Origin: Candidatus Oxydemutatoraceae bacterium
Lineage (GTDB): Bacteria > Pseudomonadota > Gammaproteobacteria > Poriferisulfidales > Oxydemutatoraceae
Assembly (NCBI GenBank): GCA_965219575.1
Contig: OZ244779.1
Coordinates: 1,484,769-1,548,768 of the forward strand
Direction: 5' to 3'
DNA: 64,000 nucleotides
The notes below the pieces were generated by a model. The model was not told the origin of the DNA. It did no database searches and saw only the letters and a list, made by a program, of their open reading frames with translations. The translations under genes and the position numbers were made by a program. Shown piece by piece: positions 15,541 through 53,190 of the stretch; the first letter of the stretch is position 1; every line of letters begins with the position of its first letter.

Positions 15541-15616
15541 ACCGATTGAGCCGGTGGGTCAATCGGCAATTTTGATGTCCGCCCCTACGGTTTATGGATA
15601 CTTTTTCAATAGCCCT
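15541..15616 (-). mobile_element. Left half of REP-containing MITE (copy C)
   Basis: Minus strand reads AGGGCTATTGAAAAAGTATCCATAAACCGTAGGGGCGGACATCAAAATTGCCGATTGACCCACCGGCTCAATCGG, which matches the first ~75 nt of the copy at 51153. Confidence 0.85.
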
Positions 15617-21705: not shown

Positions 21706-21804
21706 GGCACGATTTATACATTCATCCATCCAATTTATGGAAACCATTATTTGTTGGCGCAAGCGGTTACAGTTGCATGCTGACAATACTTTTTCAACAG
21801 CCCT
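21706..21804 (+). mobile_element. Right half of MITE with internal deletion (copy D)
   Basis: GGCACGATTTATACATTCATCCATCCAATTTATGGAAACC...GGCGCAAGCGGTTAC...AATACTTTTTCAACAGCCCT matches the copies at 34240 and 51153. Confidence 0.85.
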
Positions 21805-34222: not shown

Positions 34223-34239
34223 AATAATTTAAGGTACTT

Positions 34240-34494
34240 GGGGCTGTTGAAAAAGTATCCACGAACCGTAGGGGCGGACTAACATGTCCGCCCGTAACGC
34301 GTTGGCCGGCACGATTTATACATTCATCCATTCAATTTATGGAAACCAAAACCATACGGCGCAAGCGGTTGGTGTCGTGCAGAACGGTACTTAAGGGCAG
34401 ACACACAGGTCTGCCCCTACGGCTTGGTGGTTATTATAAATTCACGGCGCAAGCGGTTACGGTTGCACGCCGGCGATACTTTTTCAACAGCCCC
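34240..34494 (+). mobile_element. Complete 255-bp MITE containing an inverted GTAG-REP pair (copy A)
   Basis: Perfect 20-bp TIR GGGGCTGTTGAAAAAGTATC / GATACTTTTTCAACAGCCCC and 4-bp TSD ACTT on both sides. REPs at 34268-34293 and 34395-34420. Confidence 0.92.
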
Positions 34495-34537
34495 ACTTGA
34501 CTAGTTTAGGGGGTACGATTTGATAAAATAACTAGTA

Positions 34538-35212
34538 ATGACAACACCTAACAGACATTTTAGAGGGGCGCATATTTCAAACAGGAAAATGGGAAGCTTA
34601 GTTATTTATAGAACCGAACGAAATACTGGCAAAGTAGATGTTGAGACTGGCGATGTGGATGTTGATATCAACGATCCGCTGGATAGTCTGCTAGGTTATG
34701 TTCTTTCATTTGTCCCTATTGATGAATCTATTACCGATAAAGGGGAGTTGGAAACCTACTTGGAAGATCCGCTAGAACCGATAAAAGAGATGTATGACGA
34801 TGACTTTATCCGTCATCACAAAACACGTTATGAAGCATTAAAAAAAGCAACCGCCGCAAACTCTAAAGGTTGGTACGTGTACTACTCTGGTGATGACCAA
34901 TGCTACGACACTACCAACACCAAGGAGCTTCTTATCTTGCTTTGTACGATCCTTAAAAGGAAATACCCGAAGTATGAATTTGCGATATTTTATGACCAAT
35001 TCACAGGGGACGGGTGTTACGATATGAAGGAGATATATTTTACTATTCGACACGAAGGCAAGATAAACTACAAAACGCTGAAAGCAAAACTACCGCTTTA
35101 TTATAGCGATACCGTGTTGACATGGTATATAAAACAGCTGTCTGAACTTGGTTTGGTAAACGTTGAGTTGAGTAAAGCAGAGCCTCACAAAATTATATCA
35201 GTTAAGGCTTAG
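34538..35212 (+). CDS. Hypothetical protein (orphan, Asp/Tyr-rich)
   Basis: 224-aa ORF filling the gap between the MITE and dif; no family recognised. Confidence 0.7.
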   Translation: MTTPNRHFRGAHISNRKMGSLVIYRTERNTGKVDVETGDVDVDINDPLDSLLGYVLSFVPIDESITDKGELETYLEDPLEPIKEMYDDDFIRHHKTRYEALKKATAANSKGWYVYYSGDDQCYDTTNTKELLILLCTILKRKYPKYEFAIFYDQFTGDGCYDMKEIYFTIRHEGKINYKTLKAKLPLYYSDTVLTWYIKQLSELGLVNVELSKAEPHKIISVKA

Positions 35213-49829: not shown

Positions 49830-51150
49830 AGCCGGCCGGCATTTTGGCGAGTTTGGGAGACTTGCCGAGCTTTTTTGCCGCTTTTTGCATTTGTTGGTGT
49901 TGCTTTAAGACGCGGTTAATATCTTGTATCGCCGTCCCCGAACCTGCCGCAATCCGTTTTTTACGAGAACCGTTGAGACGCTCGGGGTGTTCGCGCTCGA
50001 AAGGTGTCATCGAATCGATTACTGCGACACTGGCTTTTAATTGAGTTTCTTGTGTTGCCGATTTAAGCATTGCATTTTTTCTCATTGCAGCCGGCAGTTT
50101 ATCCAGCATCGCCGAAACACCGCCCATATTTTTTATTTGCCCGATCTGATCTTTCACGTCGTTTAAGTCGAATTTGGCACGCCTCACCTTAGCGGCGAGT
50201 TTTTCGGCATCTTTTTTGTCGGTCTTTTGTTCGATGTCTTTGAGCAAGCTCTCTATCTCACCCAAGCCCAGAATACGCGCAGCAATGCGATCGGGATCGA
50301 AAATTTCCAGCTGATCTAATTTTTCTCCGGTACCTATTAATTTAATCGGTTTGCCGGTGACCATCTTGGCGGATAATGCGGCACCGCCGCGACTATCGCC
50401 GTCGGCTTTGGTCAATACAATGCCGGTTAACGGTATACGCTCGGAAAACGCCTTTGCCGAATTAACCGCGTCTTGTCCGCTCATACTATCTACTGCGAGT
50501 AAAACCTCGTTAGTCGGCACCGAGTCATGAATACGATGTATCTCATCCATCATTCCGGTATCTACATGCAATCGCCCGGCGGTATCGATGATCAAAACAT
50601 CGAATAATTCTCTGGAAGCTCTCTCGTATGCTTGTTTTGCGATTTCATCGGGTCGGAGTTCCGACGGTGTCGGATAGCACGATGCCTTAGTTTGTCGACA
50701 CAGCACTTTGAGTTGCTCGACCGCAGCCGGACGATGTACATCGCAACTGACCATCGCCACCATTTTTTTTTGTTTTTCTAAATGGCGCGCCAGTTTAACT
50801 GCAGTGGTTGTTTTACCCACACCTTGCAGACCTACCATCAATAGGGTTACAGGTGGTTTGGCTTTGAGTTTAAGTTCGATGTCGGAATCGGCGATTAAGG
50901 CGACAAGCTCGTCTTTGATCAGACGGGTTAATAATTGTCCGGGATTTATGTCTTTTTGGATACGAATATCAACCGCTTTGCTTCGTATCGCATCGCTGAA
51001 TTTATCTACGACAAAAAGTGCAACATCGGCTTCTATCAATGCCGTTTTAATCTCGGCCAAGGCATTGTCGATATGTTCGGCACTCAGATATTTGTAGCCT
51101 TGAAGGCGATTTACGATGGCACCGAATTGATTACTAAGTTGCTCAAACAT
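49819..51150 (-). CDS. ffh: Signal recognition particle protein
   Basis: GLQGVGKTT, DTAGR, TKADGDSRGGAALS, GTGEK and M-domain SRKKRIAAGSG. Confidence 0.98.
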   Translation of the reverse strand: MFEQLSNQFGAIVNRLQGYKYLSAEHIDNALAEIKTALIEADVALFVVDKFSDAIRSKAVDIRIQKDINPGQLLTRLIKDELVALIADSDIELKLKAKPPVTLLMVGLQGVGKTTTAVKLARHLEKQKKMVAMVSCDVHRPAAVEQLKVLCRQTKASCYPTPSELRPDEIAKQAYERASRELFDVLIIDTAGRLHVDTGMMDEIHRIHDSVPTNEVLLAVDSMSGQDAVNSAKAFSERIPLTGIVLTKADGDSRGGAALSAKMVTGKPIKLIGTGEKLDQLEIFDPDRIAARILGLGEIESLLKDIEQKTDKKDAEKLAAKVRRAKFDLNDVKDQIGQIKNMGGVSAMLDKLPAAMRKNAMLKSATQETQLKASVAVIDSMTPFEREHPERLNGSRKKRIAAGSGTAIQDINRVLKQHQQMQKAAKKLGKSPKLAKMPAGFMS

Positions 51151-51152
51151 GT

Positions 51153-51440
51153 GGGATTGTTGAAAAAGTATCCACGAACCGTAGGGGCGGACATCATAAC
51201 TGCCGATTGACCTACCGGCTCAATCGGCGGCCTTATCCTGCCCGTAACGCATCGGCCGTCACGATTTATGCATTCATCCATCCAATTTATGGAAACCAAA
51301 ACTAAATGGCGCAAGCGGTTACGGTTGTTCCGGACAGTACTTAAGGGTAGACATGCAAGTCTGCCCCTACAGGTGGTTTGCGTAATTGGGTGGCGTAAGC
51401 GGTTGGATTTTTGCGCTGCCAATACTTTTTCAACAGCTCC
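51153..51440 (+). mobile_element. Complete 288-bp REP-containing MITE (copy B)
   Basis: TIRs GGGATTGTTGAAAAAGTATC / AATACTTTTTCAACAGCTCC and 4-bp TSD ATGT (51149-51152 and 51441-51444). GTAG-REP starts at 51181 and an inverted REP ends CTAC at 51370. Confidence 0.9.
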
Positions 51441-51514
51441 ATGTGTGCCGCACCTACGGATTAAATCGGTGATTCTATTTTTCAATATTGCCATATCTTC
51501 CAACTTGAGGCATG

Positions 51515-51589
51515 CCATTAAATTAGGATGAATGAATGTATTGTGTGCTAGTCCGTCGCGTTCGGGCGGACATATAAGTCCGCCCCTAC
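51515..51589 (-). repeat. TIR-less GTAG-REP unit homologous to the MITE core (copy E)
   Basis: Minus strand GTAGGGGCGGACTTATATGTCCGCCCGAACGCG...ATACATTCATTCATCCTAATTTAATGG parallels copy A from 34268 to 34342. Confidence 0.8.

Positions 51590-51644: not shown

Positions 51645-53190
<1,546 letters not shown>

Follow-up and report, generated by a model that had tools for sequence, protein, structure and literature searches.

How does a short noncoding element come to hold the hairpins recognised by one class of transposase between ends ascribed to another? The question arises at a 255-bp element occupying positions 34240-34494 of a 64-kb stretch of DNA (the window) from a Candidatus Oxydemutatoraceae bacterium, whose genus consists of sponge-associated, sulfur-oxidiser-like Gammaproteobacteria. 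An initial annotation had described the element as a doublet of repetitive extragenic palindromes (REPs), known as a REPIN, captured by a DDE-type MITE (a miniature transposable element with inverted repeats) and now spreading with it as a unit. Our analysis shows that the element is a non-autonomous transposon, or MITE, which is bounded by terminal inverted repeats (TIRs), makes target site duplications (TSDs) and belongs to a mosaic family confined to this genus. Association shows its GTAG hairpins to be REPs, the recognition sites of a HUH tyrosine transposase resembling REP-associated tyrosine transposases (RAYTs; the gene here is called RayT). We consider it probable that the whole is a two-layer composite, that is, an end-defined MITE carrying RayT-dependent REPs, a judgement that concerns the two layers and not the identity of the enzyme at the ends. 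This is essentially the idea of the initial annotation without its DDE label: the REP and TIR layers behave as separable systems, and the label is unsupported.

The element and its family

The element has the perfect 20-bp TIRs and the ACTT duplication that had been read from it at the outset. The left TIR, GGGGCTGTTGAAAAAGTATC (34240-34259, + strand), has 58 exact copies in the genome and 472 with up to 4 mismatches; the right TIR, GATACTTTTTCAACAGCCCC (34475-34494, − strand), is complementary to it at 20/20 nt, or over 21 nt if the flanking T/A is included. No open reading frame (ORF) of at least 60 aa lies within the 255 bp. The two copies of ACTT (34236-34239 and 34495-34498, neither assigned a strand) mark the point at which the element splits GGTACTT from GACTAGTTTAGGG in the terminal repeat of a 753-bp IS1016-like (IS1595-family) insertion sequence (IS) with 8-bp duplications. 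The first 7 nt of this interrupted left end are 34233-34239 and the rest lies at 34495-34590 (+ strand), with 96.9% identity over 96 bp to the IS family. In 8 of 8 genomic copies the terminal repeat is intact at the left end, reading GGTACTTGACTAG, and these uninterrupted copies are paralogous empty sites that independently establish the duplication of ACTT. A second IS1016-like copy carries a family member at the mirror position of its other end (AAGT).

The closest relative, genome G036, has flanks 96% identical to those of the locus and lacks the entire ~1-kb segment (IS-like end, MITE and ORF), so that it offers no clean orthologous empty site for the MITE alone. Five read runs contain the locus; the contigs of runs X1, X3, X4 and X5 stop within the repeat, so that no contig links 34239 with 34495, and contigs that end in this way are uninformative on insertion polymorphism.

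Used as a BLAST query, the element returned 579 segments in the source genome (G000; 2,369,097 bp in one contig, 47% G+C). A search with the 15-nt end core, allowing up to 3 mismatches, found 622 sites in the same genome and, among them, 175 adjacent inward-facing pairs of 100-450 bp. The initial annotation had proposed looking for TSDs at other full copies, and they are present: an exact 4-bp TSD flanks 27 of the 175 elements and an exact 5-bp TSD flanks 29, whereas shuffled flanks average 2.4 (maximum 9) and 1.8 (maximum 8), so that an exact TSD is kept in 56/175 elements where ~4 are expected. In many cases the flanks of a copy are swapped or the copy adjoins another one. Altogether, TIRs, TSDs with empty sites, small size, absence of coding capacity and many copies mark the family as one of MITEs; for an autonomous element with the same ends, the only candidates are the RayT and Rpn/PDDEXK_2 units described below.

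The target sites fall into recurrent classes. The tetramer ANNT fits 23 of the 27 four-bp TSDs, and 21 of the 29 five-bp TSDs fall in a 19-bp site, TGCAGA-N7-SRACCA, of another repeat (repeat B), the same site being uninterrupted in 31 copies. ATGT/ACAT is a further recurrent target, found in the loops of REPs and in an IS481-like IS, within its terminal repeat; in all, two IS families are hit in their terminal repeats. Inside the elements, a constant 17-nt terminus is followed by at least 12 different sequences, and the mosaic interiors are built from the REP and two other hairpin units, with tandem arrays common. The biggest subfamilies number 30 (208-210 bp), 10 and 8 elements; the element at 34240-34494 belongs to the last of these, within which both 4-bp and 5-bp TSDs occur. 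A full-length twin at ≥99% identity exists for 29 of the 175 elements.

All five related pieces that had been counted in the window were located. Besides the element itself, these are a second complete member of 288 bp (51153-51440, + strand; genome 1535921-1536208) with an ATGT TSD at 51149-51152 and 51441-51444; a partial member (15563-15616, − strand) consisting of a right TIR and a REP whose loop another hairpin unit interrupts; the solitary TIR of a truncated member (21788-21804, − strand); and a REP hairpin with no TIR nearby (51564-51589, − strand). Two more weak end-like sites, with 3 mismatches, lie at 52969 and 55511. With up to 3 mismatches the 20-mer end occurs 6 times in the window against 0.01 expected, and none of 100 shuffles reaches 6; the GTAG box occurs 6 times against 0.17 expected.

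Several side observations concern the family and its surroundings. A 208-bp member is 99.5-100% identical between a G036 locus (L067:288-495) and G000:C1:1842224-1842431, which are non-orthologous sites, orthologous DNA being ~96% identical; this suggests either that co-resident symbionts exchanged it or that a master copy has been strongly conserved. Twenty sampled G036 regions hold 14 intact elements with no close twins, a small, similarity-chosen sample from which no rate is derivable. Self-comparison of G000:C1 revealed very large internal duplications, in 20-38-kb blocks at ≥85% identity (e.g., 1599366-1711579 and 898174-950142), and the 9-kb region 2203203-2212523 is highly repetitive. 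Next to the element in the window, a 224-aa ORF (34538-35212, + strand) without a Pfam match begins with the leader and ~17 residues of the IS1016-like transposase gene and diverges from there on; the segment holding it is the one absent from the closest relative.

REP modules and a RayT-like transposase

The element encloses two inverted GTAG hairpins, as the initial annotation had noted. Hairpin 1 (34268-34293, + strand), GTAG-GGGCGGAC-taacat-GTCCGCCC, has a GTAG head, an 8-bp GC-rich stem and a 6-nt loop, and lies 29 nt from the left end. Hairpin 2 (34395-34420, − strand), GTAG-GGGCAGAC-n6-GTCTGCCC (GTAGGGGCAGAC..GTCTGCCC), is inverted and lies 75 nt from the right end. It is preceded by a module whose core, ACGGCGCAAGCGGTT, forms an internal direct repeat: copy 1 (34356-34370, + strand) stands before REP 2 and copy 2 (34444-34458, + strand) before the right TIR rather than a hairpin. 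The same module also flanks REPs beside RayT in a congener.

The two hairpins had been taken for one captured REPIN, that is, two close inverted REPs folding into one long hairpin. This part of the description does not hold, since the two arms are 32 nt long, only 75% complementary, 93 nt apart and asymmetric within the element. The genome-wide pattern is one of fixed positions. In G000, 294 REP hairpins were counted, each with a 6-nt loop and no more than 1 mismatch in the stem; 63 lie 27-31 nt and 160 lie 66-76 nt from a TIR, together 223/294, with 4 more at other distances within 130 nt of a TIR and 67 having no TIR within 130 nt. In 20 of the 294 cases, a single REP unit lies in the loop of a different hairpin. 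The hairpins are therefore fixed-register subterminal modules.

REPs have been described as a GT(A/G)G head followed by a palindrome, and RAYT genes as delimited by inverted REPs, in the accessible text of PMC2817692. A gene in this position had been proposed as something to look for, and it was found. Between two family ends at genome positions 66166-67266 (1101 bp) lies a 188-aa ORF that matches Pfam Y1_Tnp at 24.1 bits (cut-off 23) and NCBIfam REP_Tyr_transpos at E=5e-13 and 49 bits, the latter below the cut-off of 80. Its translation contains, as read by eye, HUH (PNHIHFI) and WQRSYWD motifs, and it has >1000 homologues, several of them called RayT by their sources. A genome-wide six-frame search with PF01797 missed this gene, a sensitivity miss, as the direct ORF scan passes Pfam. 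There are two intact copies in G000, 99.5% identical over 1126 bp, and one truncated copy in a 787-bp unit; each of the three has a GTAG hairpin upstream on the + strand and another downstream on the − strand. The unit at 66166-67266 has TIRs and a 5-bp duplication in a repeat-B site.

The pairing of REP and RayT extends to the congeners, inverted REPs flanking RayT in three genomes (G000, G035 and G034). In G035, one paralogue (RayT-a) lies between arrays of the REP found in G000 (REP-a) and has no TIR. The second G035 paralogue (RayT-b), with a TIR on one side only, and the single G034 gene are flanked by a different REP, GTAGGGGAGGGC (REP-b), which in both genomes stands 28 nt behind the TIR, in the slot taken by REP-a in G000.

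Counts across the genus separate the two layers. Five genus genomes were compared (G000, the draft G033, G034, G035 and G036), and the TIR occurs in 5/5 of them and in 0/48 other genomes of the order. In the order given, the numbers of TIR sites are 360, 5, 343, 413 and 94, and the numbers of RayT hits are 3, 0, 1, 5 and 0; no IS was found at the 5 TIR sites of G033. REP-b is restricted to the two genomes with a REP-b-flanked RayT (154 in G034 and 132 in G035 vs 0, 0 and 0), and REP-a reaches 272 in G000 and 116 in G035, where a REP-a-flanked RayT is present, with 37 in G034, 36 in G036 and 0 in G033. As such, REP type and abundance track the RayT repertoire of each genome, and the TIR does not. 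This phyletic behaviour shows REP and TIR layers to be separable systems, and the REP layer turns over independently. It also bears out the earlier identification of the hairpins as REPs of a HUH-family RAYT.

Outside the genus, the same REP type (GTAGGGGCGGAC-N6-GTCCGCCC) stands, in two metagenome-assembled genomes that are unrelated (loci L024 and L025), beside RayT homologues with 45-46% identity, and hairpin 2 has a 27/27-nt match in a Calditerrivibrio plasmid (hit H2), so that the RayT/REP pairing is widespread.

Which enzyme acts on the ends

The first layer of the composite is shown by the observations above: the conserved 17-20-nt ends are cut and joined into staggered 4- or 5-nt cuts in the target, with a preference for ANNT tetramers (among them those in REP loops and in two ISs' terminal repeats) and for the 19-bp TGCAGA-N7-SRACCA site. 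The second, the internal GTAG hairpins as recognition sites of a RayT-like enzyme, is shown by association. We infer from both that the MITE scaffold carries REPs as modules, and TIR pairs can carry genes as well. The putative end enzyme would be an Rpn/PDDEXK_2 nuclease encoded in TIR-bounded units; it would act on the TIRs and mobilise in trans the MITEs, which share only the TIR with those units.

A number of observations weigh against the composite, in particular against full independence of its layers. No exact TSD is present in 119 of the 175 elements, and the genus-level co-occurrences all come from one clade. The RayT gene itself sits inside a TIR- and TSD-bearing unit. In addition, all 29 of the 29 recent twins carry a REP and none of the 31 REP-less elements has a recent twin (Fisher p=0.003, for copies that are not independent).

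The case for the nuclease starts from cargo. Only two types of gene were found between TIRs with TSDs: RayT, in a 1.1-kb unit, and Rpn/PDDEXK_2, in units of 1.2-1.7 kb. The Rpn-like ORFs match TIGR01784 at 104.8 and 109.7 bits (cut-off 52.1) and PF12784 at 105.5 bits (cut-off 27.4), and a putative catalytic core, 'VVLDL...IEMQ', was noted by eye in the translations. These genes occur in 5/5 genus genomes (13, 2, 16, 6 and 12 matches) and in 0/14 genomes of five other genera of the same taxonomic family, a distribution equal to that of the TIR, although from one clade. Across the genus, 9 of 45 gene copies lie between inward-facing TIRs within 450 bp, and exact 4-6-bp TSDs flank 6 of these 9; as background, 14 of 799 G000 ORFs of similar size lie between TIRs. 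The upstream TIR stands at 205-206 nt in 6 copies (G000 and G036) and at 375-378 nt in 9 copies (G000, G034 and G036). A 1229-bp G000 unit (433049-434277) is 91.6% identical to a 1232-bp G036 unit, the homology stops at the TIRs, and the G036 unit has ACTTCG on both sides within a repeat-B-like site. Five TSD-bearing G034 units are all inserted at ACAT in REP-b loops. Rpn/PDDEXK_2 genes also form tandem arrays of 8, 3 and 3 genes with family TIRs between them, at loci L082 (G034), L083 (G036) and L085 (G035).

Much speaks against assigning the ends to this enzyme. No more than 9 of the 45 copies are TIR-bounded; the gene in the 1229-bp G000 unit has an in-frame TAG and that unit lacks a TSD; and the G034 units share flanks, so that they may represent as few as two insertion events. 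Past the TIR, the MITEs share little with the Rpn units (10 and 3 of 622 ends). At 23 PDDEXK_2 loci analysed in other Gammaproteobacteria no inverted repeats flank the gene, the one match, of 12 nt, lying inside the ORF, and a literature search returned no report of a TIR-bounded Rpn-family element. Nor do we know of any PD-(D/E)XK enzyme that carries out strand transfer alone. In the accessible parts of the respective papers, Escherichia coli RpnA is reported as a non-specific endonuclease (PMC5350276) and Rpn proteins are described as toxic antiphage proteins (PMC10400941); given these properties, Rpn could be cargo, like RayT. On balance, we regard Rpn/PDDEXK_2 as the best candidate for the end-acting enzyme, a tentative choice held at well under even confidence. 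The fuller proposal built on it is a possibility that we advance with greater reserve: the GGGGCTGTTGAAAAAGT-ended elements may form a new IS family with an Rpn/PDDEXK_2 transposase (not DDE, HUH, serine or tyrosine), 4-5-nt staggered cuts and hundreds of MITEs carrying REPs and the RayT gene.

A classical DDE MITE is the alternative that survives best, and we judge it rather unlikely. Here, the parental DDE IS would be lost, unsampled (on a plasmid, in a phage or in another strain) or so diverged at its ends as to escape recognition, and both REPs and genes would be passengers. The combination of TIRs with short TSDs that vary in sequence is a classic mark of DDE transposition; TSDs of 3-5 bp are produced by some DDE families, and one subfamily of the present elements yields both 4-bp and 5-bp TSDs. 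Conservation of a 17-nt terminus over many subfamilies with unrelated interiors, in five species, is what would be expected of a transposase binding double-stranded DNA ends, and the terminus bears what we take to be a resemblance to IS6-type ends. Against this, the 29 twins at ≥99% identity represent recent amplification, which argues that the enzyme is still present, and G000 has no DDE gene in any coding unit bounded by these ends. Where adjacent TIRs in G000 are up to 4 kb apart, the ORFs between them are limited to RayT, IS110-family and Rpn-like ones and ordinary genes; among all TIR pairs up to 6 kb apart with matching 4- or 5-bp flanks, the RayT unit is the only gene unit resembling a single insertion. 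A survey of multi-copy repeats in G000 recovered IS3 (10 copies), IS481-like (8 copies) and IS1016-like (8 copies) elements, a second IS1595 type, TnpB units and IS110, none of which shares the ends. Eight Pfam searches of the same genome (Tn3, DDE_Tnp_1, _1_2, _1_4, _1_6, ISL3, IS1595 and IS240) likewise found no DDE gene with these ends; the PF01609 and PF13701 matches are one IS1380-type IS with ends CCCTAAATCCGCA, known IS1595 copies were also recovered, and PF13586 and PF13751 have no match in G000. There is also no TIR match among 72,556 plasmids. Since no DDE transposase with these ends was found, the IS5/IS1182 attribution in the initial annotation is unsupported, and in G000 an IS with the same TIR, which it had suggested seeking, is absent, the ends being shared by RayT and Rpn/PDDEXK_2 units only.

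Individual candidates for a DDE parent were set aside on inspection. The IS1380 family gives 4-5-bp TSDs, and its member in G000 was considered for this reason; it was rejected because its ends bear no relation to the TIR and a MITE has broken into it. In this single IS (G000:C1:1764033-1766156, ends CCCTAAATCCGCA / TGCGGATTTAGGG), a 293-bp family member flanked by an ACAT duplication splits the transposase gene, and there is an in-frame TGA too. The ISL3 match, a weak one to DDE_Tnp_ISL3 at 31.6 bits, is the C-terminal part of a 419-aa fatty-acid-desaturase-like ORF (G000:C1:64214-65470) and not a transposase. Weak IS240 matches in G034 and G035 are IS3-type orfB genes, and the genus has no true IS240 match. 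An IS6-like or IS1016-like origin of the TIR was also set aside: no IS240-family gene was found, and the IS1016-like IS ends in GGTACTTGACTAG with 8-bp TSDs.

Some of the mobile elements met in these searches deserve mention for their own sake. Seven IS110 copies (G000:C1:883758, 1306699, 1375521, 1384818, 1429115, 2071209 and 2328204) share one REP-loop junction, ...GTAGGGGCGGACTnnCATG / ATGCCTTATT..., and this common junction in the REP hairpin points to site-specific insertion into the REP loop. The IS481-like IS of 1.92 kb (ends TGTCAACCC..., G000:C1:214284-216208 and 7 further copies) has unusually long duplications of 13-17 bp, and its terminal repeat is a hot spot for the MITEs. TnpB-type genes (OrfB_IS605 with a Cas12f1-like TNB domain) lie in ~1.26-kb units (G000:C1:229776-231036, 267402-268671 and others) that end in the GGGAATTATATAG.. 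inverted repeat, the same as that of a 1.35-kb IS1595-family IS (458818-460169), which suggests that TnpB may be cargo mobilised by the DDE transposase of IS1595.

A single enzyme could also serve both layers. RayT would then move the whole element as a TIRtron or REPtron, the 1.1-kb TIR-REP-RayT-REP-TIR unit being autonomous and the MITEs its internal-deletion derivatives, a scheme that we find improbable. It draws on the 1101-bp RayT unit, with its TIRs, 5-bp duplication and 99.5%-identical second copy; on the 787-bp copy, whose truncated gene looks like a deletion intermediate; and on the presence of a REP in every recently amplified element. Similarly, the 208-bp subfamily has 44 matches in G000, where RayT is present, vs 2 in RayT-less G036; the TIR tip GGGGCTG resembles the REP stem GGGGCGG, the same module preceding TIR or REP; and, in the accessible text of PMC3733652, Y1 genes with long or composite TIRs of repeated families have been published. 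What counts against the scheme is that IS200/IS605-type enzymes, by the accessible text of PMC2817692, leave no TIR-bounded TSDs, whereas here TSDs vary between near-identical copies. The distribution points the same way. G036 has its 94 TIR sites with no RayT by protein or family search, G034 has its 343 with a REP-b RayT only, and in G035 RayT-a stands in REP arrays without a TIR and RayT-b has its TIR on a single side. Moreover, the published TIRtron motif GGGGWSAS is unmatched by GGGGCTGT.

That the family is immobile now, its pattern arising from homologous recombination, tandem amplification and segmental duplication of old copies, is very improbable: the many elements without exact TSDs, the numerous swapped flanks (e.g., RayT copy B), the common tandem arrays and the lack of a joint across the element in contigs of four runs would fit it, but 29 elements have 99-100% twins at unlinked sites with different TSDs, insertions break the single IS1380 transposase gene and a 99%-identical IS1016-like copy, and short-read contigs, which end at repeats, cannot show the absence of a joint.

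Relation to known systems and meaning

The two-layer composite borrows from several described systems, compared here with the accessible text of the papers cited. With REP/REPIN-RAYT systems (Nunvar 2010, PMC2817692; Bertels and Rainey 2011, PMC3116915) it shares the GTAG head and GC-rich palindrome in hundreds of copies, the Y1 HUH gene between inverted REPs and the covariation of REP sequence with transposase paralogue. It differs in that 223/294 REPs are fixed subterminal modules of a TSD-making TIR element, in that the REPs of one element lie ~100 nt apart and form no clean REPIN hairpin, and in that RayT has three copies and lies inside a TIR unit, published RAYTs being typically single-copy (PMC5581495). 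TIRtrons (TIRYT) and the composite TIRs of REP plus stem-loop at Pseudomonas RAYTs (Di Nocera 2013, PMC3733652) are alike in having Y1 genes flanked by long or composite repeated inverted repeats, and the same paper describes hundreds of 'bizarre' structures of a REP with an unrelated hairpin. A Y1 gene between long repeated TIRs, which defines a TIRtron, is what the G000 unit at 66166-67266 and its twin contain. In contrast, the accessible text of PMC3733652 does not contain 'target site' or 'duplication', GGGGWSAS is unlike GGGGCTGT, and the present TIR occurs without RayT (G036) and also bounds Rpn/PDDEXK_2 genes.

Among bacterial MITEs, Correia/NEMIS, RUP and Nezha (named in the accessible text of PMC3733652 and PMC2817692) resemble the family in length (100-400 bp), 17-20-nt TIRs, short TSDs, lack of coding capacity, large numbers of copies and insertion into DNA that is intergenic or repetitive; here, unlike them, there is no DDE IS with the same ends, interiors are mosaic and TSDs are 4 or 5 bp depending on the target. 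Bacterial interspersed mosaic elements (BIMEs) similarly combine a few short motifs around REPs and form tandem arrays. To our knowledge, BIMEs have neither conserved terminal inverted repeats nor TSDs. IS200/IS605 elements, which lack TIRs and TSDs and have their subterminal hairpins on one strand, differ from the family, which has TIRs, TSDs and inverted hairpins. The Rpn/YhgA-like/PDDEXK_2 'putative transposases' (Kingston 2017, PMC5350276) are of the same family as the nucleases here by TIGR01784 and PF12784, and are multi-copy, patchy and long suspected DNA mobilisers; 'inverted repeat' occurs 0 times in the accessible text of that paper, and units with TIRs and TSDs are found only in this genus. 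Finally, REP-targeting IS110 elements (e.g., ISPpu9, in the accessible text of PMC12288879) have a counterpart in the seven IS110 copies at one REP-loop position. These copies are guests in the REP, with ends other than the TIR, and IS110 leaves the TSDs unexplained.

REPs, RAYTs, MITEs, BIME-like mosaics, TIRtrons and the targeting of REPs by IS110 are thus already known. What is new is that REPs serve as fixed modules in a TIR element that makes TSDs, that RayT itself lies in an element of this kind and that Rpn/PDDEXK_2 genes are the one other cargo bounded by TIRs. The way in which REPs and REPINs spread has yet to be settled, and because REPs here ride in a conventional cut-and-duplicate MITE, the roles of RayT and of the end-binding enzyme become separable questions. 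For the symbiont itself, the family covers several percent of a 2.37-Mb genome, and its repeated hits on IS terminal repeats and REP loops mean that it shapes the structure of that genome. If Rpn/PDDEXK_2 is the mobilising enzyme, the importance of the finding rises sharply, as the family would represent a new mechanistic class of bacterial transposon. The 'putative transposase' label of the Rpn proteins would then be tied for the first time to an actual element that has ends, target duplications and non-autonomous derivatives, which would explain why a multi-copy, widespread family has borne that label with no known element.

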